DNA of 64,000 bases from an uncultured Candidatus Peribacteria bacterium (GCA_964601715.1 CAZROM010000002.1:2155-66154), one strand, 5' to 3'; numbered from the stretch's first letter, positions 1,741 through 39,463 are shown. Notes: generated by a model not told the origin, from the sequence alone. Translations and numbers: made by a program.

Positions 1741-1749
<9 letters not shown>
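1712..1749 (+). other. 5' arm of the 23S precursor processing stem
   Basis: About 34 of 38 nt are complementary to 4699-4735 (attgccataaaagt...tagaaga...gacgtt...acaacat). Confidence 0.8.
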
Positions 1750-4698
<2,949 letters not shown>

Positions 4699-4709
<11 letters not shown>

Positions 4710-4820: not shown

Positions 4821-4938
4821 GTCCAGGCAATTTTAGAGAGAAGGTCACACCTGTTCCCATTCCGAACACAGTAGTTAAGCTTCTCATCGCCGATAGTACT
4901 GCAACCTGAGTTGTGGGAGTGTAGGACGTTGCCTGGAC
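4821..4938 (+). rRNA. rrf: 5S ribosomal RNA
   Basis: Helix I is GTCCAGGCAA/TTGCCTGGAC. The conserved core CCTGTTCCCATTCCGAACACAG...GCCGATAGTACTG is present. Length is 118 nt. Confidence 0.95.
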
Positions 4939-4957: not shown

Positions 4958-6310
4958 TCAGTTGGTTTCAAAAAATGTAATCGCTGCTTCTAGTGCACTC
5001 AATTGTTCCAGATCCATTTCCGGAGAATGTTGATCTCTAAGGATTCGTCCTTCTGTTAGTGCGGCACTTCGTAACGCCTGGATGTCTAAATCTAAAATTC
5101 GTGGGTAAGGGTGATATGAACGTGTATCCTCTAAAAGTTGGATGATTTCTGCAGACTCGCATATCGTCCTATGTTTACTTTTTATTTTTTGTGGTTTGAG
5201 GTTCTTTAAGTTATTAAGTCGATCGGCTGCTTTAACCGACAGAAATTGGATTATCTGAGATTTCTCTATAAGTCCATCTCGATGTCGAGTGAGATATCCT
5301 TTTTTTAGAGTTCTCTCTTTTGGTTTGCTTAATGCTGCTAGTACTGGAACGACGTTGTGCTGGGATCTTCGGAATAGGTTGGTCGGATGGGGTAAACCCT
5401 TGTATCCAGATGATCGGTAAGATAGTTCTTTCGCTGTGTCTGGGGTGAAGTGTTCTGAGAGTTTCTCAGATAAAAAGTCTAAACCTAATTCTGGATAGTC
5501 TTCATCATAATCGTGACATTCAGCCTCGATGACACGTTCTTTTAGATCAGCAAAAACTTGTTTTTTTTCTTCAAAAGTTTTACACAGACCAAGTGTTGCC
5601 CTACCTCGATTTATGATGTGAACGCAGACTTGATAAAGATGGTTCATTGTTAATTCACCACTTTTTCGTTTTGGCTCTTTTGCGTGTACAGCACTCTTGA
5701 TGGGATTATAAACGATGTGACCAGCTTGGATGACTTCTATCCACTCTGTTAACTCTTTTAGTGATTCTTTTTTCAACTCTTCCGGCACTTCGGGGCAGGC
5801 GAGATACAGTCTCATGTAATTGATCGCGCTTTGAAAGAACAGCTTTTTAGTTGTGAAGTGCATCCGATTCAAAGTCTTTAATTTCGGTGAGTTTCTTGGC
5901 TCTTTTGAATCTAGAAATGGAGGAGGGTCCATTACTTTGACGTTGGGCGAAACTTGCATCAGTTCTTGCACTTGTCTTCGGTATCCCCCCATTTGACCTT
6001 TAATTATGCTTTTACTTGGAGAACACTCTACGATTTGATCCATATTTGCTTCTAGATTTCTGTGTTCTCTTAAAAGATCTGTGAATGCAAGTTGAAGCGG
6101 GTGATCTGGACTTAAACCTTCTGGTGGAATTGGATAACTGTTTATGTTGAAGATTTGCTCCTCATTAAGCCATAGTGATCTCTCTTCGATTTCTGGATAA
6201 GAAGGATTTTTTTGCCATTTCTCATGAGGAACATTAAAGGGAGGCCTTGTGTAATCGAATTCGGCGTACTCTTCCTTTAATTCTTCGGTTGAATGTACCG
6301 TTTCTGACAT
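4958..6310 (-). CDS. Hypothetical protein with a RelA/SpoT-type HD (HD_4)-like core; N-terminal ~200 aa unknown
   Basis: The ATG at 6310 gives MSETVH; the track ORF begins earlier at a TTG. By eye it carries KRKSGELTMNHLYQV, AECHDYDEDYPE and LSVKAADRLNNLKNL. These resemble the RSH hydrolase blocks RxSGEPYxxHPxxVA, ALLHDxxEDT and VKLADRLHNMRTL. GC is lower than in neighbouring genes. Confidence 0.4.
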   Translation of the reverse strand: MSETVHSTEELKEEYAEFDYTRPPFNVPHEKWQKNPSYPEIEERSLWLNEEQIFNINSYPIPPEGLSPDHPLQLAFTDLLREHRNLEANMDQIVECSPSKSIIKGQMGGYRRQVQELMQVSPNVKVMDPPPFLDSKEPRNSPKLKTLNRMHFTTKKLFFQSAINYMRLYLACPEVPEELKKESLKELTEWIEVIQAGHIVYNPIKSAVHAKEPKRKSGELTMNHLYQVCVHIINRGRATLGLCKTFEEKKQVFADLKERVIEAECHDYDEDYPELGLDFLSEKLSEHFTPDTAKELSYRSSGYKGLPHPTNLFRRSQHNVVPVLAALSKPKERTLKKGYLTRHRDGLIEKSQIIQFLSVKAADRLNNLKNLKPQKIKSKHRTICESAEIIQLLEDTRSYHPYPRILDLDIQALRSAALTEGRILRDQHSPEMDLEQLSALEAAITFFETN

Positions 6311-6366
6311 TTTATTAGCATAAACAGTGTCTGATTGAACACCCAAAACCGCTTTTCGTCAATCTG

Positions 6367-7125
6367 TTAGGCGCTCTTCGGCACTTCAGCGCTGATGGGG
6401 GCGACGGTGGCTTCGTCTTGTTCGAGAGCGAGTTCTTTGTCGGTTTCGAAGCGTTGACTGCGTGAAGTCAGAGGATTGTAGGTTTCGTAGTAGAGTTCGA
6501 TCAGCTCCTGAGTGCCCAAAATTTGAGCTTGGAGGCCACAGCTTTCGAGGCCAGCTCGCACGGTGTTCACACGTTGTGTGAGGCGTTTTTTAAGGTCGTC
6601 GAATTGAGCGTGGCGTTTTTTGATTTTGGCGACGTCGTCTCCTGGAAAGATGGATTCGATGAAGCTCTTCAAAAAACTGCGGCGTTCTTCACCGATGGGG
6701 TCTTGAGGAATGACAACGTAGAATTGTTTTTCCATGATGTCGGCGTATTCCACCAGACGACTGACGTATTCGATGTATTCAAAAGTCTGTTTTTGCAGGA
6801 GAGGATTGCCTTGTTTGACGCCGATTTTTTTGAGTTTGTCGATGTACTGTTCGAGGTCGAGTTTTTTACTGCGGATCACGACTTGAATGGGAAATTCCAA
6901 AGAGTTCAAAAAGTTTTGGTAGGAATAGATGACGGCGTTTTGTTCCTGTTCGGATTTCAAATTCAAATTGATGCTCGAGGTTTTGAGCACCATGCGAAGT
7001 CCTCCGTTCTTCAAAATGACGGCATCGTCGCGGATTTCAGAAACCTTCAGATACAACTGTGTGCTGAGACGTTTGTCTTTTTTGCTTCCTTTCACCGAAT
7101 CTTTTGTCCCTGGCGTGGGTGTCAT
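6367..7125 (-). CDS. VirB4/TraC N-terminal-domain-like protein (T4SS-associated) lacking an ATPase domain
   Basis: LKVSEIRDDAVILKNGGLRMVLKTSSINLNLKSEQEQNAVIYSYQNFLNSLEFPIQVVIRSKKLDLEQY follows the pattern seen at the N-terminus of Gram-positive/CPR VirB4-like ATPases. There is no Walker A motif. An ATGA overlap couples it to the PrgI-like gene. Confidence 0.5.
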   Translation of the reverse strand: MTPTPGTKDSVKGSKKDKRLSTQLYLKVSEIRDDAVILKNGGLRMVLKTSSINLNLKSEQEQNAVIYSYQNFLNSLEFPIQVVIRSKKLDLEQYIDKLKKIGVKQGNPLLQKQTFEYIEYVSRLVEYADIMEKQFYVVIPQDPIGEERRSFLKSFIESIFPGDDVAKIKKRHAQFDDLKKRLTQRVNTVRAGLESCGLQAQILGTQELIELYYETYNPLTSRSQRFETDKELALEQDEATVAPISAEVPKSA

Positions 7126-7571
7126 AAGGTTTGGGGTTTGCCGTAAGAGTCGAGCAGTTTCGAAATTTCTCCGATTTTTTCAAGACGTTCGTGATCGCGT
7201 TCGGCTTTGCTGCTTTCAACAGGACCAGTTTGCACTTTTTTATCCTTTTGAGCAAACAAGCTTAACGAATAATTGTCTCCCGCTCCCATGATGAAGATTC
7301 GCTTATTGGGGAGGAAGAAGTATTCGGCCATGAGAAAAACCCATTTCCCAAAAGGAATTCCGTTCAATTTGAGAAAGGTGACCATGAGGGTCAAGGAACC
7401 CGTGATGAAGGGAAGGATGAGCCAAGCGCCCATGTAATAGCGACTTCCGAAATAGTTGTAGATCACGTAGGTGATGCCTCCGCCCACGCCCAAATAGATC
7501 AGTTGGCGCAGGGTCAGTGGGCCCACGATTTTGTCTTCTACTTGCACGTTTTGAGGAATTTTGTATTGCAT
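7122..7571 (-). CDS. PrgI family (VirB3-like) membrane protein
   Basis: The N-terminus MQYKIPQNVQVEDKIVGPLTLRQLIYLGVGGGITYVIY is the characteristic PrgI-family signature. Two TM helices are present. Confidence 0.7.
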   Translation of the reverse strand: MQYKIPQNVQVEDKIVGPLTLRQLIYLGVGGGITYVIYNYFGSRYYMGAWLILPFITGSLTLMVTFLKLNGIPFGKWVFLMAEYFFLPNKRIFIMGAGDNYSLSLFAQKDKKVQTGPVESSKAERDHERLEKIGEISKLLDSYGKPQTL

Positions 7572-13129: not shown

Positions 13130-14377
13130 TTAGCTTTCAATTCCAGGTACAGGGAATCCTTTGCAGAGTTCCTTCACTTCGCCTTGGACTTTGCTTTGAA
13201 CGGAAGCGTCGCTTGCGTTTGAAACGACTTCGTCGATCCAGCCTGCGAGGATTTTCATTTGGTCTTCCTTCATGCCACGAGTGGTGATCGCTGGAGTTCC
13301 CATACGGATTCCAGAAGGATCGAAAGGGGAGCGAGTGTCGAAAGGAACCATGTTCTTGTTGCAGGAGATTCCGGCGAGTTCCAAAGCTTTTTCAGCGTCT
13401 TTTCCAGGGACGCCCTTGCTCGCCATGGTGTCGATGAGCATGAGGTGGTTGTCGGTTCCGTTGGAAACGATTTTGAATCCGCGAGCCATGAGCTCGGCAG
13501 CGAGCACTTTGGCGTTGGCGATGACTTGGCGGCTGTATTCTTTGAATTCAGGCTTGAGCGCTTCTGCAAACGCAACGGCTTTGGCCGCATTGATGTGGTC
13601 GTGAGGTCCGCCTTGCATTCCAGGGAACACGGCTTTGTCGATGGCTTTGGCATACGCTTCTTTGCACATGATCATGGCGCCACGAGGTCCACGCAAAGTT
13701 TTGTGAGTTGTGGTGCTGACGATGTCAAAGTAAGGTACTGGATTTTCGAGTTGCCCCCCTGCGATGAGCCCAGCGATGTGAGCGATGTCGGCAAAAGTGA
13801 TGGCTCCAATCTTGTCTGCGATTTCTTTGAAACGTTTCCAGTCCATGCTGCGTGAGTAAGCGGAGAATCCAGCCACAATCATTTTTGGTTTTTCACGAAG
13901 CGCGATTTCTTCTACTTTATCCATGTCGATGATTCCGTTTTCTTCCACTCCGTAACGAACGAAGTCGTAGAGCATTCCGCTGAAGTTCACGGGGTGACCG
14001 TGGGAGAGGTGTCCTCCGTGATCCAAACTGAGTCCGAGCACTTTGTCACCGGGTTTGATGGTGGCGAAGTACACGGCTGCGTTGGCTGGGGATCCGGAGA
14101 GAGGTTGAACGTTCACGTGTTCGGCTCCAAACAATTCTTTAGCGCGATCGATGGCAAGAGTCTCGACGGTGTCGATGTTCACTTGTCCGGCGTAGTAACG
14201 CTTTCCTACATATCCTTCGGAATATTTGTTGGTCAAAATGGTTCCCATGGCTTCGAGCACGGCTGGGGAAACATAGTTTTCGGAAGCGATCAGTTCGAGT
14301 TCTTCGGATTGACGCTTGGACTCCGCCATGATGGCGTTGTAGATTGCGGGATCCTGAGCTTGGAGCTTGGGAAGCAT
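13130..14377 (-). CDS. glyA: Serine hydroxymethyltransferase
   Basis: [28 protein letters not shown] and the PLP-lysine block [12 protein letters not shown] are present. Confidence 0.97.
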
Positions 14378-14388
14378 GGGGGAAGGGG

Positions 14389-14940
14389 TTAGAAGGTGTA
14401 AGTATGGGTGTCCGTGAGGACGAGATCAACAGGCACATCGTGGCTTTCGGTGGGCAATTCTTCGGTCACTTGTTCATCAAAAGCCAGAGCGACTTTAAAG
14501 CCCTTTGTTTCTTTGAGCAAGCGATCGTAAAAGCCTTTGCCATGTCCGAGGCGATTGCCTTTGAGGTCGAAGGCAAGCCCTGGAATCACGATGAGGTCGA
14601 TGCTTTGTGGATGAGCGAGGTTTTGGGTTTCACGGGGTTCAAGAATGCCGATTTCGCTGGGACTGAGTTCATCGAGAGAGTTGAGTGGGCAGAGCAAAAG
14701 ATTCAGTCCGTCGACTTTGGGTGCGAACACCGTTTTGCCGAGCGCGAGGCTCTGCTCAATTGCGTCGTGGGTGGCCACTTCTTCAGGAGTGGAGACATAA
14801 AAAAGGACGCTTTTGGCGTCTTTGAATTCTTGGAGTTCGAGAAGTTTGCGAGTGATGAGGAGACTTTTTTCCTCGCGGACGGTTGGCAGAAGCGTGAGTC
14901 GCTTCTCCCCAAATTGCTTTCGAAGAGCTTGTTTGTTCAT
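14389..14940 (-). CDS. 5-formyltetrahydrofolate cyclo-ligase
   Basis: [10 protein letters not shown]...LFYVS...EIGILEP...[24 protein letters not shown]...[11 protein letters not shown]. The start is the ATG at 14940. It sits directly upstream of glyA. Confidence 0.85.
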
Positions 14941-15065
14941 TGGGATGAAACCGTGACCAGTGTGAGGCCGTAGACCCCTTTTGTAAAGCAAAAAATGGTG
15001 CTAAATTAGGGCCACACGCGTTCTCAAATCTCACGACCTTATTCTTTTCTTTAAATATTATTTTT

Positions 15066-20327: not shown

Positions 20328-21098
20328 TCACTTTCTCGATTTTATCTTCAAAAGGTCTTTTTCTAAAAGTTTTGCGTATTCAAAGGCTAAATTAAAAATT
20401 GCCTTTTGTGTGTCGGCTATGTTCTGATTTTGAATAATCACTCCTATCTGGTCCTGATGAGAGATTATTGCTACTTTGTCGTCGTAAATATTAATTTCAT
20501 TTTTAAATGGAAATTTTTCCACTGGGACCAGGTAGACCTCTCTTAGTTCTTCCTTGCCTCTAGTTTTGAACTTTAATCCTATGTTGTCATAACAGAATAT
20601 ACCTCTGAGCCAAATCTTCCGTTCTACTTTTTTCTTAACGTAGGTGGGGTAATAGTCTTCAAGTAAATCCATTGCGATGTTTGGGTTAGCCCAACAATTC
20701 AAATCGCTCTTTGCAGTTAACGTATCCTCCATAATTTGAATTAGCCCCTCTTTGCCTTCGTAAACGCTCATTTGTGGTGTTACTTCGAATTTTTGATTTA
20801 GCTTTTGAAGCAATGGCATTACGTTTTGTAGCTTCAGGAATTTGTTTTTCTCCTCTTCTAGTAGCAATGATGGGTCTACTGCTCTATAGAATAAGTTGCC
20901 TTTTTTGCTAATGTGGCTAACAAATCCCTTTTTCTGTAACTGCTCAAGGATAACGTAAGTTGTTGGACGTTTGACTCCTGATTTCCTGGAGATCGTGCTT
21001 GGTAGTGATTCGTTTAACTCAAGCAGTGTTAGGTAGATCAAAGATTCTTTTTCCGTAAAACCAATGGAGTTAAGAGTGTTTTGTAATATGTTTTTCAT
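20328..21098 (-). CDS. TrmB-family transcriptional regulator, paralog 1
   Basis: The N-terminal wHTH reads FTEKESLIYLTLLELNESLPSTISRKSGVKRPTTYVILEQLQKKGFV. The C-terminal block NEINIYDDKVAIISHQDQIGVIIQN is shared with the other two paralogs. Confidence 0.8.
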   Translation of the reverse strand: MKNILQNTLNSIGFTEKESLIYLTLLELNESLPSTISRKSGVKRPTTYVILEQLQKKGFVSHISKKGNLFYRAVDPSLLLEEEKNKFLKLQNVMPLLQKLNQKFEVTPQMSVYEGKEGLIQIMEDTLTAKSDLNCWANPNIAMDLLEDYYPTYVKKKVERKIWLRGIFCYDNIGLKFKTRGKEELREVYLVPVEKFPFKNEINIYDDKVAIISHQDQIGVIIQNQNIADTQKAIFNLAFEYAKLLEKDLLKIKSRK

Positions 21099-21102
21099 TG
21101 TC

Positions 21103-21113
21103 TGACATGTTTG
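21103..21113 (+). repeat. TGACATGTTTG motif, copy 1 (operator candidate)
   Basis: Exact 11-mer, 5 nt from the paralog-1 start codon. It is repeated at 21189-21199. Confidence 0.5.
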
Positions 21114-21187
21114 TGAATTTTGGTCCGCGAATATGGTAATTCTACTCTTTTGAATGAAGTATTTACAGTTTTAGATAAGGTTTAACA

Positions 21188-21216
21188 TTGACATGTTTGA
21201 CTATTTTGTTTATATA
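21188..21216 (+). promoter_or_regulatory. Sigma70-type promoter for the 21236 ORFan
   Basis: TTGACA (21188-21193), a 17-nt spacer, then TATATA (21211-21216). Confidence 0.5.
21189..21199 (+). repeat. TGACATGTTTG motif, copy 2, overlapping the -35 box
   Basis: Exact 11-mer, 86 nt from copy 1. Confidence 0.5.
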
Positions 21217-21235
21217 TAGCGCTACGTATCATATT

Positions 21236-22171
21236 ATGCGCTGTATTGAGCCGAATTCCGGGGGAGCAGAGTCTGAAGCTGAAGTGACTGAGGTCATCTC
21301 TGTTATTGCTGGTGATGTTTTTTTTGGGTCTTCCGATAGGGGTGCTGACTATCAAGATGCTGCTTTCGTGTCTGCTATGAAAACTGTAGTTGAGATTAGG
21401 AATTCAAGGCGTCAAGAACTTGGGAATGCAATTTTTATGTTTGATCAGGCAGGTCCTTGGAGGGATTTTATCCAAGCCTCTTCTTTGAGTCAAAGTAAGA
21501 AAAGGATCACTCTTTCGAGGCTTAAAGAGCAGTTTAAAGATCCTTTAGCTAAGTTTGTAATACACTCAGGCCTTCCATTAACTTTTTTAGATGAGTTGGA
21601 GGCGTTGCCAGAAGAGAAGTTAAAATTTTTGTTTTTAAATTTGGCTAAACAGAGGCAGTTAGATGTTAGGATGCTTTTGGAGAATGGTTTGTTAGGGCCA
21701 AAGGCCTTTGGCCCACTGCCTAGAGGGCAGCTTGTTGGGCAGACACGCTTATTTGATATGATTGATGATGGTGCCGAGGATGAAGACAGTGATTCAGTTG
21801 AAGATAATGTTGAGTTCTCAGCTGATAGTTGTTCTCTAATTCGTTCTCCTGCAGGTGATTTGACTCAAGTTAGTGTTTCGTTTGAAGATTATTTGGCACG
21901 CTGTCGTGCTGTTGCTACAGCTCTAACTCTTCGTGCCGCCACGCTTTCTAGTATGGACCAGGCGGATAGGGTGGAGGCTTTTTATCAATATGACAATACA
22001 GCTCCTAATCGAGTTGATCCTAATGTCGTTACATTTGGCGCGGAATTTGCCCAGAAGACATTAGGACTAACGGCTCCTGTAGTTACACATTTCTTTGTTC
22101 CACATGAAGGAGGGGTCCATGAGTCGATTTTCGATACAAGAGGTGGGCTTACAATTAAAAGGCCTAACTAG
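21236..22171 (+). CDS. Hypothetical protein (311 aa), no recognisable domain
   Basis: Long ORF starting at the ATG at 21236; the track start at 21188 is the TTG of the -35 box. It has an acidic central linker (DDGAEDEDSDSVED). Confidence 0.6.
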   Translation: MRCIEPNSGGAESEAEVTEVISVIAGDVFFGSSDRGADYQDAAFVSAMKTVVEIRNSRRQELGNAIFMFDQAGPWRDFIQASSLSQSKKRITLSRLKEQFKDPLAKFVIHSGLPLTFLDELEALPEEKLKFLFLNLAKQRQLDVRMLLENGLLGPKAFGPLPRGQLVGQTRLFDMIDDGAEDEDSDSVEDNVEFSADSCSLIRSPAGDLTQVSVSFEDYLARCRAVATALTLRAATLSSMDQADRVEAFYQYDNTAPNRVDPNVVTFGAEFAQKTLGLTAPVVTHFFVPHEGGVHESIFDTRGGLTIKRPN

Positions 22172-22931
22172 CACTCTCTGCTTTTTCAAACGCCATGTAA
22201 AACAGAGCTCGTTGTGAATCAGCGATGGCTTTGTTTTGTATGATCACGCCGATCTCATCTCTTGGGGAAATAATGCTAACTTTGTCGTCATAGATGTTTA
22301 TTTCGTTTTCGAATTTGTATTTGCTGTCACTTATGAATCTAACTTCACGCAGCTGTTTCATGCTCTGAGTTTTTAAGTAGATGGCACCAACACTTTTGTC
22401 GAATAAGCATTTTGAATGAATCTTCCTCTCCACCTTCTTTTTTACGTACGATGGGTGGTAGTTTGTCAAAAAAGTACTTTCTGCAATTTCTACATTAGAC
22501 CAACAAAGAATTTCTCCTTTCGTTGTGAGTGAGTCCTCCATGACTTGAATCACGCCATCTCGTCCATGATACACCGACATTTGAGGAGTTTTTGTGTAGT
22601 TTTCGTGGGTTGCATATAGCTTCGGAATGGCTTCGGTCAGAGTGCTCAGATTGGACTTGCTGTCTTCGAGCCGACTCTGTTCCTTTTCCAAGAAAATTTC
22701 AGGTTTAATGGCTTGGTAATAGAGGACTTTTTGTTTCTTGACACAGGTGACGAGTCCTCTCTCGAGTAGTTTCTCGAGGGCCATGTAGGTCGTTGGTCTT
22801 TTGAGGCCAACTTTTTTCGAAATCACACTTGGAAGTGCTTCATGCAATTCAAGCAAAGCTAGATAAGTTTTCGCTTCCTTTTCGGTGAAGTTCAGTGCTT
22901 GTAAGGCGTGTTGAAGGGCGAGTGTGGTCAT
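22164..22931 (-). CDS. TrmB-family transcriptional regulator, paralog 2
   Basis: FTEKEAKTYLALLELHEALPSVISKKVGLKRPTTYMALEKLLERGLV. The C-terminal block is NEINIYDDKVSIISPRDEIGVIIQN. An ATGA overlap couples it to paralog 3. Confidence 0.8.
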   Translation of the reverse strand: MTTLALQHALQALNFTEKEAKTYLALLELHEALPSVISKKVGLKRPTTYMALEKLLERGLVTCVKKQKVLYYQAIKPEIFLEKEQSRLEDSKSNLSTLTEAIPKLYATHENYTKTPQMSVYHGRDGVIQVMEDSLTTKGEILCWSNVEIAESTFLTNYHPSYVKKKVERKIHSKCLFDKSVGAIYLKTQSMKQLREVRFISDSKYKFENEINIYDDKVSIISPRDEIGVIIQNKAIADSQRALFYMAFEKAESAS

Positions 22932-23749
22932 GATTTGGATTTGCCTTTTAAATACTTGATATCTTCCTCTGTCAGAACTTTTTTTTCTAATTCCTTTGCT
23001 CTTTCAAAAGTAAGTTTAAATATCGCTCGTTGAGTATTTGCTATGTGTTCATTTTGTATGATTACCCCAATTTCATCAGTGTGTGAAATAATCGCTACTT
23101 TATCATCATAGATGTTGATCTCATTTTGAATTGGGTATTCCTCTTTTGGAATGAGATAAACTTCACGTAATTCCTTTGCACCATATTTTTTGTCGTGAAG
23201 CGAAGCTTTGTCATAGGTCGAAACACCTTTGAGCCATAGATTCTTCTTTATTTTTCTTCTTAGATATTCTGGGTAATACTCTTTTAATGATTCAAGTGCT
23301 AAATCTCCATTGCACCAGCAAAGTAGTTCGGTTTTGGAGGTCAACGTATCTTCCATCACTTGTATCAAGCCTTCTTTGCCGTAGAAGACGGACATTTGAG
23401 GAGTGGCGGAGTATTTTTGGTGAAGGGAGAGCAGTTCGGGCAGGGCGCTGGTGAGGCTGGTGAGTGTTTTTTCGAGTTCTTGGGCGCGGGTACGTTCTTT
23501 TTCGAGGAAGTATTCTGGTTTGGTGGCTTGGTAGTACAGGACTCCCTTCTTTTTCACGCTGGAGGCGAGGCCGCGAGCCTGAAGTTTTTCGAGGGTTAGG
23601 TAGCAAGTGGGACGCTTTTGGTTCAATTTTTTGGCGAGCGTGCTCGGCAGGGCTTCGTTCAGTTCAAGCAAAGTGAGATAGACTTCAGCTTCACGCTTGC
23701 TGAGTCCGAGATTCTGTAGGAGCAAGGTGATTTGGCTGAGTTCTATCAT
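22928..23749 (-). CDS. TrmB-family transcriptional regulator, paralog 3
   Basis: The start was set at the ATG at 23749 (MIELSQ...), which overlaps the rluD stop as ATGA. LSKREAEVYLTLLELNEALPSTLAKKLNQKRPTCYLTLEKLQARGL is the wHTH. The C-terminal block is NEINIYDDKVAIISHTDEIGVIIQN. Confidence 0.8.
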   Translation of the reverse strand: MIELSQITLLLQNLGLSKREAEVYLTLLELNEALPSTLAKKLNQKRPTCYLTLEKLQARGLASSVKKKGVLYYQATKPEYFLEKERTRAQELEKTLTSLTSALPELLSLHQKYSATPQMSVFYGKEGLIQVMEDTLTSKTELLCWCNGDLALESLKEYYPEYLRRKIKKNLWLKGVSTYDKASLHDKKYGAKELREVYLIPKEEYPIQNEINIYDDKVAIISHTDEIGVIIQNEHIANTQRAIFKLTFERAKELEKKVLTEEDIKYLKGKSKS

Positions 23750-24651
23750 CCGTTTAGGAGGGCTAAGGTATTGGTCAGATCCTCGGGTAGATCGGCTTCG
23801 AAATGTTTGCCGTCCAGGTCCAGTTCTTTGGCGTGCAGCCATTGGCGAGTCAGGCCCAAGTCTTTTAAAGCGCGGGCGTTGAGAGCTTTGTTGCCGTAGG
23901 TGGCATCTCCAAGCACAGGATGACCGATGCCGGCGAGGTGAAGGCGGATTTGGTGGGTTCGTCCGGTTTCGATGTTCACTTTAAGTAAAGAACACCATCC
24001 GTAATTTTCGATGATTTCAAAAGTGGTGACGGCGGCTTTGCCTTGGCTGTGCATGGCCATTTGTTGACGATTCTTGGTGTCTCGTTTGATGGGGGCGCTG
24101 ATGCGTCCACTTGTGGTTTTTGGGTAATCCTTAACAAGAGCCCAGTAGGTCTTGTGAACTTTGCGTTTTTGAAAGAGATTGGAAAGTTTGCGCAAACTTT
24201 CTGCGGTTTTTGCAATGACCAAGGCTCCGGAGGTGTCTTTATCCAGACGATGCACAATTCCTGGACGGAGCTCGTCCTTAGGTTTTTTGATTTTGAGGTG
24301 AGAAACGATGGCGTTGGCGATGGTGTTGTTTTGATGTCCGGTGGTGTCTGGGTGAACCACGATGCCGGCTGGTTTGTTGATGACCATCATCTCTTCGTCT
24401 TCGTAGAGAATGTTGAGGGGCATCTCATTTGGCAAAACGCCACGACGGGGTGCTGCGGCCAGTGGCATATGCAGTTTTTCACCCGTAGTGAGGCGGTAAC
24501 CGGTTTTGGTGCAAGCTTTTCCATTCACTTTCACTCGACCGGCGTCGATTTGCTTTTGAATGGCGCTTCGACTTTGCCCTGTGGCTTCGGCGATGAATTG
24601 ATCGATGCGTTTGCGGCTGTCTTTCTCGGTGATTTGGGTTTCAAATTGCAT
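23746..24651 (-). CDS. rluD: RluA-family 23S rRNA pseudouridine synthase (RluD-type, with S4 domain)
   Basis: The S4-like N-terminus reads RIDQFIAE...SRSAIQKQIDAGRVKVNG. The catalytic block is HRLDKDTSGALVIAKT, followed by GRTHQIRLHL. Confidence 0.88.
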   Translation of the reverse strand: MQFETQITEKDSRKRIDQFIAEATGQSRSAIQKQIDAGRVKVNGKACTKTGYRLTTGEKLHMPLAAAPRRGVLPNEMPLNILYEDEEMMVINKPAGIVVHPDTTGHQNNTIANAIVSHLKIKKPKDELRPGIVHRLDKDTSGALVIAKTAESLRKLSNLFQKRKVHKTYWALVKDYPKTTSGRISAPIKRDTKNRQQMAMHSQGKAAVTTFEIIENYGWCSLLKVNIETGRTHQIRLHLAGIGHPVLGDATYGNKALNARALKDLGLTRQWLHAKELDLDGKHFEADLPEDLTNTLALLNG

Positions 24652-33444: not shown

Positions 33445-36396
33445 CTACTTGGCGGGTGTTTCTTCCGGGTCTTCTGCAAGGGGCAAATCGATTTCAATGG
33501 GCTCTTGATCTTTCGTATCGAATATGAGTTCGTAACCCAGTTTGCCCACTTCAACAGCGGTGACTCCGACCATCCCCTTCCCTGCGACGTTCTTCATCAC
33601 ACGTAAAAGTTCTTGGTATCCACCGAGTGCTTTGGCTAGACCTTGTACTTCTGGAACAATGGCTTTGGCTGCGGCGATCACTTCAGGGCCTTTACCTGCA
33701 GCTCGAAGGGCGCCTTCAATAGTATTTGAAGTTCCGTAAATAGCAGCGCCTCCTGCGCCACCCACTTCAACTGTCGCACCTCCACCAATAGCTGCTAAAG
33801 CGTCGCTTCCCAAATTGTAGGCGCCAAAGACTACACGTGTTAGTCGATTCCATGTTCCTGCCTCTTTTCCCGTGAATAATTCTTTTCCGGTTGCGACGGT
33901 GTACCAGTCGGAAGCTCCAAATGGAGACAGTACGTCAGCAATGATTTGGAGTACATCCCAACCGAATTCTTTACCCCAGTCGTAGACTTTTCCAGCTGCA
34001 TAGGCTTCTTTTTGTTCATCACTACATTCAAGATATTCAAGCCCAATAGCGGCTGTTCCGAATATGATTTGTAATTTTCCTGTAGATCGTTCTCCCATTT
34101 CTCTTAAGATTCCTCGGACCCCACTTGCGTGTGCCATTTCTGTTTTGAGCAATCCTTTGAGTGCGGTTTGTTCTTCTTTGCTGAGCTCTTTAGAATGAGT
34201 TTTTAGGTCTTCGAATATACTCTTGTAACGAGTTCTTACTTCTTCGAGGTGCGCTCGAGTTTCTTGTGTAAGTGCATCAATCTCTGTTTGAGGTTTTCCG
34301 TCTCGAGTCATTTGCTCTACCTTTTCTTGGAAAGATTTCATGTAGGCATCACTTTCTTCTACACTCTTGCGAAGGGCTTCAATTTTCCCCATGTTGGGCT
34401 GAGCTTCAATGGCATCGGGTGCTAATCGGGCCTTGGTTTCGTCTAAGGAATTCATTTGAGGTGCTCTTGGATTTACTTCGTCTTGGAAGGCGTGGATGAA
34501 TTCTTTTATGTCTTCACGATGTTCTCTGAAGTCACGAAGATCATATGGAAATTTTGGATTTTTAACGCCTTTTGCCCTCTGATAATCCTCCCAACTTTTA
34601 CCGAATTCTACGAAGTGGAATTTCTCCATTCGTTCAAAATGCTCGGGCTCCAGAGTGTTGAGACGTACGAGATGTGCATCGGTTAATCGCCCTTTTTCTA
34701 CTCGTTGCACTCGATCGAAGTATTTTTCGTATTCTTTAATGTGCCTAAGGGCTTGATCTTTGGCTCGTGTTATTTTGACGTCTTGGGTCCGGAATAGACT
34801 TCCTAGTTTTTCTCCTTCATTTTGAGCCTGGGCCATTCTGTAGTCTGCCTCCGTGAGGACTTTTGCCAAACCTTTTTCACCCGCTTTGACCATTTTTATG
34901 GAATTCCAGATGGCACCTACGGGGCCGAGGAGTGCTCCTCTCAATCCTCCTATTGTAAGCCCTCTCGTGATGCTTTCTCCTTTCCATAAGGCCGCCATGG
35001 TTCCCATTGCCATTCCTGTTCCCATGAACCATACCCCCCCGTTTTCGTACCAACTGATTCCTCCTTCGACAACGTTTTTGGCAGCGCCATGGAAATCCCC
35101 TCTTCCCGCATTGTAAACGAATAAACCAGCGTGTTTGAATTCGTCTGCTAGAATGGTTCCAGAAGAAACAAGAATCCCTGTCGCTCCTTTTGCGATGAAG
35201 GTCCCCCATTCAGTTTGAACAAGAGTGGCGCCGTCTTTAAGAGCTCCTTCGGTAAGAATCACAGCAGCTTCTTCTTTGCTTTCGGCATCTTTTGCTCGCT
35301 TGAATGCCTCTGCGGTTGCGGGCAATTCTCCTTTTGCCTTTTCGGGATCATCGGTAATGGTTAGGTCGCCATTTTCTGGGCTCTTATCGTCGCCTTCTTC
35401 TGTTTTTTCTCCTTTTTCACCGACTTGTTCGTGAGCTTTAAGAGCTAGGAATTTTTGAAAAATTTCTCCGATGGTGAGCTTTTCGAGTTCTTTGTCGGAG
35501 ATTTTAAGTTCGGCTTTGTGAGCTTCGATGTAGTCGGCGATTTTATCTTCTTCGGCCACACGTTTGAGTTCGTCATCCACATTGGTAAATGGGATGTCTT
35601 CCACTTGGACGCCTGCCCATTCAAGCCCTTTGGTGAGGTAGCTTTTTTTGCGGTCTTTGGCGCGTTGTTCTTTAAAGTGGTTGTACCCTACCGTTTGAAG
35701 TTCGGCGAGGTGGCGTTTTTCGATATCGAGTTCGTCGGAAAAATATTCAATGGTTGGATTGTCGGTGTCGTAAACGAGTTGTTCGTAAGCCTCTTTAAGA
35801 TGATCTGGCCCTTTTTTCAAGGTTTCAAAGAACTTCTTCAAGCTTCCGTTATTGATAGTGAAGTCGAAAGCCTTTTGAATCCATTCAAAAAACGTGCCTC
35901 TAAAAACAAATCCTGTGGCGCCGAGCAGTCCGAGCCCCCAGCCCCATGGAAAATCTTTCACTTTTTCTACAAAGTCCTTTCCTTTTTCAATGAGTCCTTT
36001 GTCTTCTTTTTCCTCGTCGGTTTTCCCCTCTCCTTTATCTTTTTCTGTGGTGTCATCTGTAAATAGGGACTCTGCCCATTTGGTCATTTTGTAGGCACCG
36101 ATGGCTCCGATTCCACCTGCTGCCAGGTAAGCTGTGAGGGTCATCCAGCTGAACTCTTTGGGATTTTCTCCTTTTTCCATTCGTTCTCGCATTTTTTCTC
36201 CTTCCTTGCTTCGAAGATACGCATCGACTCTCTCCCCAAAACTATTATTTCTTTGGTGAATATCTAAAGAAAGATCCGCACGTGCTTGAGCTGGTGTTTT
36301 TTCTCTTTCGAGTTGGCTTTCATTACCCGTTTCAAGAGTGTTTTGTGATCCTTGTGGAAGTCTGGCGTTCATTGAAGAGGTTTTAAATCTCTTCAT
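33445..36396 (-). CDS. Large (983 aa) multi-pass membrane / coiled-coil protein with a PT-TG-like motif near the C-terminus
   Basis: Several Gly/Ala-rich hydrophobic segments and long charged coiled-coil stretches are present. LSPFGASDWYTVATGKELFTGKEAGTWNRLTRVVFG (nt 33823-33930) resembles the pre-toxin TG domain. The tail is Gly-zipper-like (GGGATVEVGGAGGAAIYG). Confidence 0.6.
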   Translation of the reverse strand: MKRFKTSSMNARLPQGSQNTLETGNESQLEREKTPAQARADLSLDIHQRNNSFGERVDAYLRSKEGEKMRERMEKGENPKEFSWMTLTAYLAAGGIGAIGAYKMTKWAESLFTDDTTEKDKGEGKTDEEKEDKGLIEKGKDFVEKVKDFPWGWGLGLLGATGFVFRGTFFEWIQKAFDFTINNGSLKKFFETLKKGPDHLKEAYEQLVYDTDNPTIEYFSDELDIEKRHLAELQTVGYNHFKEQRAKDRKKSYLTKGLEWAGVQVEDIPFTNVDDELKRVAEEDKIADYIEAHKAELKISDKELEKLTIGEIFQKFLALKAHEQVGEKGEKTEEGDDKSPENGDLTITDDPEKAKGELPATAEAFKRAKDAESKEEAAVILTEGALKDGATLVQTEWGTFIAKGATGILVSSGTILADEFKHAGLFVYNAGRGDFHGAAKNVVEGGISWYENGGVWFMGTGMAMGTMAALWKGESITRGLTIGGLRGALLGPVGAIWNSIKMVKAGEKGLAKVLTEADYRMAQAQNEGEKLGSLFRTQDVKITRAKDQALRHIKEYEKYFDRVQRVEKGRLTDAHLVRLNTLEPEHFERMEKFHFVEFGKSWEDYQRAKGVKNPKFPYDLRDFREHREDIKEFIHAFQDEVNPRAPQMNSLDETKARLAPDAIEAQPNMGKIEALRKSVEESDAYMKSFQEKVEQMTRDGKPQTEIDALTQETRAHLEEVRTRYKSIFEDLKTHSKELSKEEQTALKGLLKTEMAHASGVRGILREMGERSTGKLQIIFGTAAIGLEYLECSDEQKEAYAAGKVYDWGKEFGWDVLQIIADVLSPFGASDWYTVATGKELFTGKEAGTWNRLTRVVFGAYNLGSDALAAIGGGATVEVGGAGGAAIYGTSNTIEGALRAAGKGPEVIAAAKAIVPEVQGLAKALGGYQELLRVMKNVAGKGMVGVTAVEVGKLGYELIFDTKDQEPIEIDLPLAEDPEETPAK

Positions 36397-36418: not shown

Positions 36419-38029
36419 TTAAAGGGCTTTGGTCATATAGGTTCCTTCGAGCTCGTAACCCCATTTGCGGTAGTAGTTACGAGTGCCGACGCCGGCGATG
36501 ATGGCCATTTTTTTGAAGCCGTCTTTTTTGGCGAGTTCTTCGGCTTTTTCGAGCATGCGTCGTCCGAGGCCGGCGTGTTGTGAGGCTTCTTTGTTTGCGG
36601 TTCCGATTTGCATTTCGGCGCCGTAGACGTGGACTTCGCGAATGAGAGCAGCACCATCGAGTTCAGGAATGAAGTGTGGTTTGCCTTGTAAGGAATACGA
36701 GGAGTAACGCATGCGCAGAAGCGAGCAGAGTTTGTCTCGTTTTTCATCGTTGAAGCTGATGAAGAATTCTTTTCCATCGGCCGCTTCGTATTCTTCCACC
36801 CGAAGGATGGTGACGTTGGGATCGTAGGATTCGCCTTTGATTTCGCGGCAGCGGATGCAGCGGCAGAATTTTTTGTCGGCGTTCATGCGCTCTTCGAGCA
36901 ATTGGCGCATGTTGGTTTTTTGACTTCCTTCTAAAATGGATTCTCCTGGAATGTCGCGGAAGAGACGTTCGACGCGAACGTAATCCGGCAGCTCGAGCTG
37001 CATTTTGTAGAGCAAATCCATGAGCACTTCGTCGCTGTAGGCTTCGTAACGACCTTCCTTCCACCACTGTTCGAGCTCCGCGTAAGGCGTGACCACGCAA
37101 GGGTAAATCTTGACTTGATCGGGTTTGAAAGCGGGATTGCGGAAAAATTCTTGGACCACCCAGAGGTCAAGTTCGGGAGTGCTGCCGGGCAGGTTCGGCA
37201 TGAGGTGAGTCGCGATTTTAAAGCCTGCGTCACGGAGGAGTTTCATGGCATGAACGGTGTCTTCGATTTTTTCGCCGCGTTTGTTGAGGTCGAGCACGGC
37301 TTGGTCGATGTGTTGCACTCCGATTTGAACTTTGGTGCAGCCGAGACGTCGCATGTTTAGAATTTCGTCTTCGGTGATGTGATCGGGACGTGTTTCGAGA
37401 CTCAGTCCGATGATCTTGTGTTTGGCGGATTCATTGATGATTTGCGCTTCTTCCAGTGAGCGGCCTGTCTTCCCTTTTTCGTCGGGAAGTCCTTTGTTGC
37501 AGGCGTTGAACAGAGCGCGTACGAAATCGGTTTGATAGCGACGGTTGTAGGCTGAAAAGGTTCCGCCCAGCACGATCATTTCGATTTTATCGGTTTCGTG
37601 ACCCTGACGAGTGAGACTGTCGATGCGAGTTATAACCTGATCTTCAGGATGGAAATCGTCCAAAACGGCGCGCATGGCGCCGGGTTCGTTCGAAAGATAG
37701 GACTTGGGCATTCCCGGTTCTGTGGGGCAGAACACACACTTTCCTGGGCACGGATAAGGTTTGGTGAGCACCGTGAGCACGCTCACGCCCGACAAGGTTC
37801 GGATTTTGCGTTTGCGGATGAGGCGCTGCAGGACTTTATCCCCTTCCCATCCGGTTTTGAGCAAGTCTTCGTAGGCGACTTGAAGCTGAAAGTTGCTGGG
37901 TAAAGGAATTTTGAACTCGCGGGCGAAGAGTTTTTTGAGTTTGTGAAGCTCCTCCTCAGATTTCTCCTTGAGTTTGGAAGCTTGTTTCAGCAGGTTTTGA
38001 AGTATATTCTCCTCTTGAATGATTTTCAT
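36419..38029 (-). CDS. elp3: Elp3-type radical-SAM / GNAT tRNA uridine(34) modification enzyme
   Basis: RTLSGVSVLTVLTKPYPCPGKCVFCP...SYLSNEPGAMRA...GHETDKIEMIVLGGTF is the radical-SAM part. The C-terminal GNAT part reads QHAGLGRRMLEKAEELA...IAGVGTRNYYRKWGYELEGTYMTKAL. The start was set at the ATG at 38029. Confidence 0.85.
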   Translation of the reverse strand: MKIIQEENILQNLLKQASKLKEKSEEELHKLKKLFAREFKIPLPSNFQLQVAYEDLLKTGWEGDKVLQRLIRKRKIRTLSGVSVLTVLTKPYPCPGKCVFCPTEPGMPKSYLSNEPGAMRAVLDDFHPEDQVITRIDSLTRQGHETDKIEMIVLGGTFSAYNRRYQTDFVRALFNACNKGLPDEKGKTGRSLEEAQIINESAKHKIIGLSLETRPDHITEDEILNMRRLGCTKVQIGVQHIDQAVLDLNKRGEKIEDTVHAMKLLRDAGFKIATHLMPNLPGSTPELDLWVVQEFFRNPAFKPDQVKIYPCVVTPYAELEQWWKEGRYEAYSDEVLMDLLYKMQLELPDYVRVERLFRDIPGESILEGSQKTNMRQLLEERMNADKKFCRCIRCREIKGESYDPNVTILRVEEYEAADGKEFFISFNDEKRDKLCSLLRMRYSSYSLQGKPHFIPELDGAALIREVHVYGAEMQIGTANKEASQHAGLGRRMLEKAEELAKKDGFKKMAIIAGVGTRNYYRKWGYELEGTYMTKAL

Positions 38030-38036
38030 AAGCACT

Positions 38037-38684
38037 ATGCACTCTAAGAGAATCCGCGAAAAGGTCAAGCAGGACTACGATTTGATCGCTTCGGAGTTTT
38101 CGGGAACGCGCCAAGCGGGCTGGTCTGAATTCGAGGTTTTTAAGCCTTATTTGAAGCAAGGAATGCGCGTTTTGGATCTGGGTTGTGGGAACGGACGACT
38201 GCTGGATTTTCTGAAGGATTTTAAGCCTGCATTGTATGTGGGCGTTGACCAGTCGACAGGGCTTTTGGAAGAGGCTAAGAAAAAGTATAAGGGCGAAGGT
38301 GTGAAGTTTTTGAATCTGGACATGATGGAGATGAACGAAGTGGAGGGACCTTTTGATGCGGTTTTTTTGATCGCTTCTTTTCATCACTTGCCGCCCAAGG
38401 ACCAACGATTTTTTCTAAGACAACTCAAATCGGTACTGGCGCCGAATGCAGTGATTTGCATGACGAATTGGAATTTGTGGGGGTGGCGATTTTGGAAGGC
38501 GTGGCTTAGGAATTTGTTCTGGCCGAATTACGGTTTTAAAGGGCTGCTCATTCCCTTCCAAAATCGCGTCCATCGTTATTACTATGCTTTCACGCAGAAT
38601 GAAATCCGCACTTTGCTGCAAGATGAAGGTTATACGGTGCTGCACGAAGAACCTGGTAGAAATTATGTAACCGTGGCTCAATAA
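38037..38684 (+). CDS. Trm9/ALKBH8-like class I SAM methyltransferase
   Basis: DYDLIASEFSGTRQAGW, VLDLGCGNGRLL, FDAVFLIASFHHL and RYYYAFTQNEI line up with yeast Trm9 blocks VYNEIAPHFSQTRYKPW, IDVGCGNGKYL, FDFAISIAVVHH and RYYHLY. Confidence 0.65.
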   Translation: MHSKRIREKVKQDYDLIASEFSGTRQAGWSEFEVFKPYLKQGMRVLDLGCGNGRLLDFLKDFKPALYVGVDQSTGLLEEAKKKYKGEGVKFLNLDMMEMNEVEGPFDAVFLIASFHHLPPKDQRFFLRQLKSVLAPNAVICMTNWNLWGWRFWKAWLRNLFWPNYGFKGLLIPFQNRVHRYYYAFTQNEIRTLLQDEGYTVLHEEPGRNYVTVAQ

Positions 38685-39463
38685 TGAAAAAAGGAGGAAC
38701 ATTTTTTGGAGTGCATGTGGATGGATTCACCCGTGAAGAAGCGCGCGAGCTTTTGAACGAGAAACAACTCATCTTCACGCCAAATCCTGAAATTTTGCTG
38801 GAAGCGTCTCGCAATGAACGATATAAAAAAGCACTGCAGCACGGAACCATGATGCTCCCCGATGGCAATGGGCTTCAGCTGGTCAGCTTTCTGATGAAGC
38901 TGCGATCTCGTTTTCTGCGACTCCTCTTGCTGCCCAGTGTTTTGCTCCTTTTCCTTTTCAAAAAATCTTATTTCAAATTGTTTGGATTCCCTGAAATCAT
39001 TCACGGCTCCGACTTCATGCACGATGTGGTGGCGAAGGCAGAGTCCAAAGGATGGTCTGTGTTCTTTTTAGGGGCAAAAGCGGGTGTTGCCGACAAAGCT
39101 GCGAGTCATTTCAGCGATGAGTTTCCTTGTCTTAAAATCGCAGGCGTTTCTTCCTTGGATCCAAGTGAAGCGGCGTTTGATTTAGTCTTGGCTTCGAGAG
39201 CACAGGTGCTTTTTGTGGCTTATGGGGCGCCCAAGCAAGAGCTTTGGCTCGCTGAGTATGCGTCACGCCTCCCCGACTTAAGACTGGGCATGGGCGTTGG
39301 CGGCTCCTTTGATTTTTATGCAGGCACCGTGAAACGAGCGCCTAAACTCATGCGAAAGCTCGGACTTGAATGGCTCTGGCGTTTACTCATGAATCCCGTT
39401 CAGCGCGCAAAACGCATCTGGAATGCGGTGGTGGTGTTTCCGGTCTTGACACTTTTAAAGTAA
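38684..39463 (+). CDS. WecB/TagA/CpsF-family glycosyltransferase (ManNAc-transferase type)
   Basis: IFTPNPEILLEA, LPDGNGLQL, VFFLGAKAGVADKA, VAYGAPKQELW and APKLMRKLGLEWLWRL are present. Confidence 0.8.
   Translation: MKKGGTFFGVHVDGFTREEARELLNEKQLIFTPNPEILLEASRNERYKKALQHGTMMLPDGNGLQLVSFLMKLRSRFLRLLLLPSVLLLFLFKKSYFKLFGFPEIIHGSDFMHDVVAKAESKGWSVFFLGAKAGVADKAASHFSDEFPCLKIAGVSSLDPSEAAFDLVLASRAQVLFVAYGAPKQELWLAEYASRLPDLRLGMGVGGSFDFYAGTVKRAPKLMRKLGLEWLWRLLMNPVQRAKRIWNAVVVFPVLTLLK

Follow-up and report, generated by a model that had tools for sequence, protein, structure and literature searches.

Modifications of the 5-methoxycarbonylmethyluridine (mcm5U) type at the wobble uridine of tRNA (U34) are regarded as eukaryotic and archaeal. 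Here we compare the enzymes that make them with the predicted products of two divergent genes, one for Elp3 and one for a Trm9-like methyltransferase (MT), in a 64,000-nucleotide (nt) stretch of DNA from an uncultured Candidatus Peribacteria bacterium (GCA_964601715.1, CAZROM010000002.1:2155-66154; hereafter, the window, which supplies the coordinates used throughout). The eukaryotic system, Elongator together with Trm9-Trm112 (ALKBH8-TRMT112 in human), employs the same two catalytic folds and the chemistry predicted for the window pair, but Elongator includes the partners Elp1, Elp2 and Elp4-6, which the window pair lacks, its own two genes lying head to head. The archaeal system, described in Haloferax volcanii and Sulfolobus solfataricus, shares with the window a stand-alone Elp3 with an extended N-terminus and the clustering of the Elp3 and Trm9 genes, the latter seen in Sulfolobus (PMC6144793). 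With Trm112, the archaeal Trm9 HVO_1032 forms mcm5U in vivo and, in vitro, requires Elp-dependent 5-carboxymethyluridine (cm5U) (PMC6144793, PMC5372719); mcm5U is proven in vivo for the archaeal pair.

In bacteria, MnmE/MnmG (with MnmC) modify the same target, C5 of U34, presumably in the same decoding role, but these enzymes, a GTPase and an FAD enzyme using methylene-tetrahydrofolate and glycine or ammonium, are unrelated to Elp3 and MT in both ancestry and chemistry. CmoM, which converts cmo5U to mcmo5U in Escherichia coli (PDB 8JOZ), is likewise a bacterial class I methyltransferase that esterifies a wobble-uridine carboxylate, but the CmoA/CmoB pathway to which it belongs is unrelated to Elp3. 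According to a 2017 review, no bacterial genes resembling the methyltransferase partners of Trm112 are detectable (PMC5372719); a 2020 review held bacterial Elp3 to be confined to Dehalococcoides, without evidence for xcm5U derivatives (PMC7663514), and a 2026 paper merely noted Elp3 in "numerous bacteria" (PMC13315578). Our search of the literature, which did not extend to the 2016 paper on the Dehalococcoides mccartyi enzyme, DmcElp3, returned no paper that joins the Candidate Phyla Radiation (CPR) with Elp3 and none on bacterial Trm9. To our knowledge, what bacterial Elp3 makes in vivo has never been determined, in part because DmcElp3 is weakly active. In two domains of life the pathway is well documented; the predicted bacterial version would be new. 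We consider it probable that Elp3 and the Trm9-like MT make up a stand-alone bacterial pathway of the Elongator type, which would convert wobble uridine in two steps, via cm5U, to mcm5U.

The Elp3 gene and its Trm9-like neighbor

The first-pass annotation of this DNA had placed the two open reading frames (ORFs) on opposite strands, with 7 nt between them, and both were recovered at exactly these positions:

36419..38029, minus strand: Elp3 gene, 536 aa plus stop; predicted tRNA U34 carboxymethyl-forming radical-SAM/GNAT enzyme (TIGR01211, Pfam, PDB)
38030..38036: spacer of 7 nt between the divergent ATG codons of Elp3 and MT
38037..38684, plus strand: Trm9-like class I S-adenosylmethionine (SAM) methyltransferase gene, 215 aa plus stop; predicted tRNA cm5U34 carboxyl O-methyltransferase (profile, hhalign, Foldseek)

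Three public assemblies independently call identical products of 536 and 215 aa, and all the peptide blocks previously pointed out are present in the translations (PCPGKCVFCP, QHAGLGRRML...YMTKAL, DYDLIASEFSGTRQAGW, VLDLGCGNGRLL, FDAVFLIASFHHL and RYYYAFTQNEI). The 7-nt gap is real as well, being in agreement with the public gene calls and the N-termini of homologues. Elp3 starts with the ATG at 38029 (minus strand), a longer version from a TTG at 38068 being possible, and MT starts at 38037 (plus strand), with a possible alternative ATG upstream, at 38019; because the homologues start at the same residues (MHSKRI for MT; residue 1 of Elp3 in loci L001-L007), the choice of start codon does not account for the short spacer. 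With only 7 nt available, each promoter must therefore lie inside the 5' coding region of the other gene. For Elp3, a promoter scan picked up a single weak candidate of the sigma70 type directly ahead of the ATG (TTGACC-16-TAGAGT, minus strand, 38068..38041); for MT, it picked up none.

The 536-aa protein is unambiguously Elp3. It scores 530.8 bits against NCBIfam TIGR01211 (cutoff, 350), with residues 18-536 aligned to positions 7-522 of the 522-position model, and contains the Pfam domains Radical_SAM (PF04055), Radical_SAM_C (PF16199) and GNAT. Its best PDB matches are the M. infernus enzyme MinElp3 (6iaz, E=8e-118) and DmcElp3 (5l7j, E=3.5e-110), both Elp3 enzymes with demonstrated tRNA-dependent activity. 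The following parts can be delineated:

37805..38029, minus strand: N-terminal extension, aa 1-75, with 17 K+R against 11 D+E (composition; the DmcElp3 alignment begins at residue 73)
37727..37750, minus strand: radical-SAM Fe-S motif CPGKCVFC, with C94, C98 and C101 (translation; CX3CX2C spacing as in DmcElp3)
36422..36667, minus strand: C-terminal part of the KAT/GNAT domain, with QHAGLGRRML and Y519 (MAFFT residue mapping)

The window Elp3 and DmcElp3 (PDB 5L7J/5L7L/6IA6) are 44.8% identical in a MAFFT alignment and share the spacing of the Fe-S motif, as opposed to the CX4CX2C of archaea. The three Fe-S cysteines align with those of DmcElp3, as do C389, C391 and C394 of the zinc-binding CxCxxC. 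Among the residues listed for the acetyl-CoA site of DmcElp3 (PMC6367351), K77, K193, E386, H388, R411 and Y441 are kept as K148, K271, E465, H467, R490 and Y519, of which K148 and K271 lie upstream of the 36422..36667 segment, within the radical-SAM part. Like Elp3 of the eukaryotic Elongator, the window protein has a radical-SAM, a KAT and a basic N-terminal part. DmcElp3 lacks this last part, a lysine-rich extension of about 72 residues that is also carried by other CPR Elp3 proteins. In archaeal and eukaryotic Elp3, the N-terminal extension binds tRNA, with high affinity in the archaeal MinElp3 (PMC6367351), and the weak tRNA binding and weak activity of DmcElp3 have been attributed, as a proposal, to its absence (PMC6367351, PMC7663514).

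The MT is harder to place. Pfam returns generic matches (Methyltransf_25/11/12/31/23) that do not decide the family. Single-sequence tools fail to place the protein; the decisive match to Trm9 is at the level of individual residues. In the study of the Trm9-Trm112 structure, alanine substitution of R29, D72, H116, W145, W168, R241, Y243 or N271 inactivated yeast Trm9 (ScTrm9), and these residues, together with Y18 and H115, were assigned to the binding of the uracil ring and the cm5 carboxylate (PMC4678810). In a joint alignment of the MT family and Trm9 (alignment A3; Yarrowia numbering checked), the eight inactivating positions correspond to R25, D71, H117, W145, F174, R180, Y182 and N209 of the window MT, and Y14 and H116 are the counterparts of Y18 and H115. 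The yeast residue is retained at seven of the eight positions, and the remaining one, F174, is a conservative W-to-F replacement; at this position, equivalent to W168, at least 90% of the MT family have W, and the clade of the window (P0002, P0003, P0505) has F throughout. Most of the mapped residues are invariant across the bacterial family, in A3 as well as in A1, the alignment and profile that we built from 42 of the 385 relatives found in a database search at E<=1e-5. Along the gene, the motifs are arranged as follows:

38076..38111, plus strand: N-terminal helix motif Y14..IA..F..TR25, equivalent to ScTrm9 Y18 and R29, which position the cm5U carboxylate (PMC4678810; A3)
38175..38195, plus strand: SAM-binding motif I, DLGCGNG, aa 47-53 (alignment, translation)
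38382..38387, plus strand: H116-H117, equivalent to ScTrm9 H115/H116, for uracil O4 recognition and catalysis (PMC4678810; alignment)
38469..38471, plus strand: W145, equivalent to ScTrm9 W145, which stacks on U34 (PMC4678810; alignment)
38556..38558, plus strand: F174, at the ScTrm9 W168 position (alignment)
38574..38585, plus strand: R180-Y-Y182-Y motif, equivalent to ScTrm9 R241 and Y243 (alignment)
38661..38663, plus strand: N209, equivalent to ScTrm9 N271, for bidentate uracil O2/N3 recognition (PMC4678810; invariant in A1 and A3)

The window MT has in common with eukaryotic Trm9 the Y..IA..F..TR..W helix, the HH, W, PW and RYY motifs and the terminal N; it differs from fungal Trm9, to which it is about 25% identical, by the absence of the fungal insertion before RYYH and by the clade-specific F for W168.

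Family-level comparisons point in the same direction. When the A1 profile was searched against 177,635 PDB sequences, Yarrowia Trm9 (5cm2_Z) came out on top (81.7 bits, E=5e-22, residues 23-208) and was the sole full-length match, spanning the N- and C-terminal substrate-binding motifs, whereas the runner-up, at 67.7 bits, was aligned over the Rossmann core only. Comparison of A1 with 14 named fungal Trm9 proteins by hhalign gave a probability of 99.9 and E=2.7e-33 over 192 columns. The AlphaFold2 model of MT (predicted local distance difference test score, 94.6) also found 5cm2_Z as its top match in Foldseek, and the JGI annotation names one family member, P0120, as TRM9. CmoM came 29th in Foldseek and fell outside the top 60 profile matches. 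We also considered, and rejected, assignments to UbiE/MenG, UbiG, CpaM, cyclopropane fatty acid synthase and other Methyltransf_11/25 families, which stay well below the NCBIfam cutoffs (CpaM, 63.4 against 180; UbiG, 43.1 against 103; UbiE, 37.9 against 158) and align over the Rossmann core alone. The test between Trm9 and other families that had been proposed for this protein accordingly favors Trm9, by the top PDB rank of the profile, the hhalign score and the retention of the essential residues, and Trm9, rather than another class I methyltransferase, appears to be the closest characterized relative of MT.

Conservation of the head-to-head pair

The first-pass annotation also described bacterial Elp3 homologues as rare, and this is wrong: there are at least 8000 DmcElp3-like proteins, and a scan of one genome per GTDB species recovered at least 542 loci that encode the MT family. 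We examined the best 80 of these, with flanks of 10 kb, by tblastn with the window proteins, counting as informative the 73 loci with at least 1.8 kb of upstream sequence. Elp3 is found upstream of MT, always on the opposite strand, in 63 of the 73, and within about 300 nt in 56 of these 63; 17 of the 80 have no upstream Elp3 match, seven of them being too short on that side. The spacer varies among relatives, from about -28 to +130 nt. The paired loci carry the labels Peregrinibacteria, Gracilibacteria, Komeilibacteria, Falkowbacteria, Kuenenbacteria, Nealsonbacteria, Magasanikbacteria, Parcubacteria and Humimicrobiaceae, many others being labelled generically.

The same arrangement occurs around the characterized bacterial enzyme. 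We rebuilt the DmcElp3 sequence from the PDB alignment and used it to find its genomic context: in D. mccartyi CP019867 (L081), Elp3 (6001-7380, plus strand) is divergent from a 224-aa MT (5283-5957, minus strand), about 43 nt away. At 29% identity to its window counterpart (E=1e-16), the D. mccartyi MT retains the residues at the R, D, HH, W, PW, RYY and N positions. Three more Elp3 loci of the Dehalococcoidia type are organized in the same way, making four of four informative loci, and one further locus ends at a contig edge. The association of Elp3 with MT is far beyond chance, and its persistence, which had been proposed as a test of the pair, holds both across CPR classes and in Dehalococcoidia. 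Because of this conservation, the head-to-head pair of Elp3 and a Trm9-like gene appears to be a general property of bacterial Elp3, almost always present, rather than a peculiarity of the window. Functional coupling of the two is indicated at the genomic level only.

For 69 loci with the pair, we clustered all neighbors up to 4 kb away in both directions. The only recurrent ones were serine hydroxymethyltransferase (SHMT) with FolD (16-20 loci), GatB and WecG, the last of which fell into one cluster with MT owing to MT-WecG fusions; no thiolase, amidotransferase or Trm112 recurred among these neighbors. The SHMT and FolD-like genes stand on the far side of Elp3, in other CPR classes (for example, L022:964-2310 and L010:5092-6033), so that one-carbon/folate genes adjoin a wobble-uridine enzyme; in the window, SHMT (13130-14377) and 5-formyltetrahydrofolate cyclo-ligase (14389-14991) are 22 kb away. 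In Dehalococcoidia, the pair lies 1.5-3 kb from QueH, an epoxyqueuosine reductase and, as such, another wobble-base enzyme, and a GNAT acetyltransferase, in an order kept in three loci (L081:3140-4406, L082:2767-3859 and L085:1263-2463). In seven CPR loci, genes are inserted between Elp3 and MT (GxxExxY-type proteins, a metallo-beta-lactamase-type (MBL) hydrolase, secreted repeat proteins, a TrmB regulator and an HD protein); these are mutually unrelated, and we rejected the idea of a hidden third component at this position.

A predicted two-step pathway and its alternatives

The family assignments and the conserved adjacency lend support to the two-step, Elongator-type scheme put forward in the first-pass annotation. 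In the first step, Elp3 would use radical SAM chemistry and acetyl-CoA to place a carboxymethyl group on C5 of U34 in a subset of tRNAs, yielding cm5U, and would do so alone, as archaeal Elp3 does in vitro. In the second, the divergently encoded MT would esterify the carboxylate of cm5U with SAM, with mcm5U as the product, or mcm5s2U should the genome encode thiolation of position 2 as well. We infer the nucleoside product, the tRNA substrates, the independence from Trm112 and, from the 7-nt spacing, co-regulation of the two genes through their shared 5' region. Pfam searches, extended to about 50 further genes, detected no MnmE, MnmG, MnmA, Ncs6/TtuA or Trm112 among the approximately 55 genes of the window.

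Several observations weigh against this scheme. Trm9 of eukaryotes and archaea needs Trm112, in archaea in vivo (PMC6144793), and neither the window nor the 10-kb flanks of MT in the 80 relatives yielded a Trm112/YcaR-like ORF, which bears out the earlier remark that no such partner is visible nearby. This search combined a CPxC...DG[IV]P regular expression, tblastn with an approximate YcaR sequence, inspection of 57 small intergenic ORFs and Pfam analysis of the two nearest small ORFs. By our own reading of A3, the hydrophobic Trm112 interface gives a mixed picture: some positions are polar in the MT family (V59 and A110 of Yarrowia Trm9 correspond to R44 and N100), and others are still hydrophobic (F78 and F116 correspond to L66 and F106). 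In single-sequence phmmer searches of the PDB, Trm9 ranks only 14th for the window MT, although 5cm2_Z is the sole match aligned nearly end to end, and seventh for the Dehalococcoides MT; in Foldseek, the E-value of Trm9 is just 2.5-fold better than that of METTL6, a negligible margin. MT does not adjoin Elp3 in 10 of the 73 informative loci, and in Peregrinibacteria/Gracilibacteria it is at least as tightly tied to WecG/TagA, fusions included. Finally, RFAH replaces RYYY in one of these fusions (L011:9974-11461), with alanine as the equivalent of Y243, despite a neighboring Elp3 gene; here, MT may be a diverged or relaxed copy.

The explanation that best withstands the evidence after the two-step pathway, although we think it unlikely, is that MT is a relative of Trm9 with a different substrate (another carboxylated or hydroxylated nucleoside, another position in tRNA or rRNA, or another derivative of the Elp3 product), paired with Elp3 for the co-regulation of translation genes and not for consecutive chemistry. 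Such a shift would fit the near-equal scores of many class I methyltransferases in single-sequence and structural searches, the lack of a detectable Trm112 nearby, and the deviations of the family from Trm9, namely, WNL in place of WALEQ and an inserted helix after beta4, along with the W168-to-F change in the clade of the window. However, the positions proposed to grip the uracil ring and the cm5 carboxylate of the Trm9 substrate are precisely those that are invariant in the MT family, and Elp3, the maker of the Trm9 substrate, is the sole neighbor of MT that is conserved across phyla.

A second explanation, which we regard as distinctly improbable, turns on the gene on the other side of MT and would make Elp3 incidental:

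38684..39463, plus strand: WecG/TagA/CpsF-family glycosyltransferase gene, directly downstream of MT (PF03808, 159.9 bits; TIGR00696, 123.9 bits)

The MT stop codon and the WecG ATG overlap by 1 nt (TAATG, 38682-38686), as would be expected of genes that are co-transcribed and translationally coupled; this link, as tight as that between Elp3 and MT, was missing from the first-pass annotation. MT could, then, partner WecG/TagA in the synthesis of an envelope glycopolymer, for example, by methylating a sugar or a lipid-linked intermediate. A WecG homologue follows MT in 30 of the 80 loci, at least five of which have enough upstream sequence but no adjacent Elp3, and the two genes are joined in uninterrupted in-frame fusions in L011 (9974-11461) and L031 (1928-3394). 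An exhaustive search for the MT family (949 cluster representatives at E<=1e-30) added weight to this, with MT-WecG fusions in six of the top 150 representatives (P0363, P0408, P0424, P0442, P0472 and P0496). The WecG link is, however, confined to a single clade, that of genomes sharing the recG...gatB synteny, and is missing where Elp3 and MT stay together in other CPR classes (40 loci) and in Dehalococcoidia, the Dehalococcoidia MT having no adjoining WecG gene; moreover, the conserved residues of MT fit a nucleoside-carboxylate methyltransferase. Because of this confinement, the link most likely reflects operon compaction within one clade. A second type of C-terminal fusion places a SET domain after the Trm9-like MT in one ORF (L047:9545-11092; PF00856 in P0447).

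More speculative still is an extension of the two-step pathway in which Elp3 and a Trm112-independent Trm9 would be the native, possibly sole, xm5U34 system of Patescibacteria and Dehalococcoidia, and the WecG/TagA of the Peregrinibacteria/Gracilibacteria clade would be a third enzyme, extending the wobble side chain to a new glycosylated uridine derivative; we consider this very improbable. The weakest proposal, to which we attach next to no credence, is that the adjacency of Elp3 and MT is inherited synteny of two housekeeping genes devoid of functional meaning, as the density of CPR genomes, where many unrelated genes abut or overlap, and the unrelated genes between Elp3 and MT in seven loci might suggest, but the pair persists where the other neighbors all differ (40 paired loci have no other window neighbor, that is, recG, gatB or wecG) and recurs in the same orientation in two distant phyla, with the clustering of archaeal Elp3 and Trm9 as a precedent.

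Genomic setting and implications

The window is a housekeeping stretch, with genes for 23S and 5S rRNA, five tRNAs, LepA, SHMT, TyrRS, IleRS, RecG and GatB, among others, and homologues are labelled Candidatus Peregrinibacteria, Peribacteria or Gracilibacteria, that is, Patescibacteria/CPR. The rRNA genes have an unusual layout. The plus strand carries 23S (1744-4706) and 5S (4823-4937), no 16S gene is found within the window, and just upstream of 23S, on the minus strand (828-1002), are tRNA-Ile(GAU) and tRNA-Ala(UGC), two genes usually located in the spacer between 16S and 23S. Near the rRNA genes are also a PrgI-family protein, a component resembling those of type IV secretion and conjugation (7122-7571), and a protein with an S-layer homology domain (7-759). 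Three paralogues of TrmB-type regulators (archaeal-like, sugar-specific) lie within 3.5 kb (20328-23842), two of them adjacent and overlapping on the minus strand. Directly downstream of Elp3, a 983-aa protein (33445-36396, minus strand) has no significant Pfam domain and, among related loci, one weak homologue (L004, 30% identity); it is probably fast-evolving and membrane- or surface-associated.

Taken together, the occurrence of the pair across CPR classes and in Dehalococcoidia and the kinship of MT with Trm9 suggest that an Elongator-type pathway of tRNA modification is probably widespread in bacteria, and that the Elp3 and Trm9-like genes may have traveled between archaea and bacteria as a mobile two-gene module. 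The CPR proteins might provide better bacterial model enzymes, an Elp3 with the full tRNA-binding N-terminus and a Trm9 that is possibly independent of Trm112. The pairing of the two genes turns the question of what bacterial Elp3 makes into a directly testable prediction, namely, that mcm5U or a derivative thereof would be present in Patescibacteria and Dehalococcoidia.

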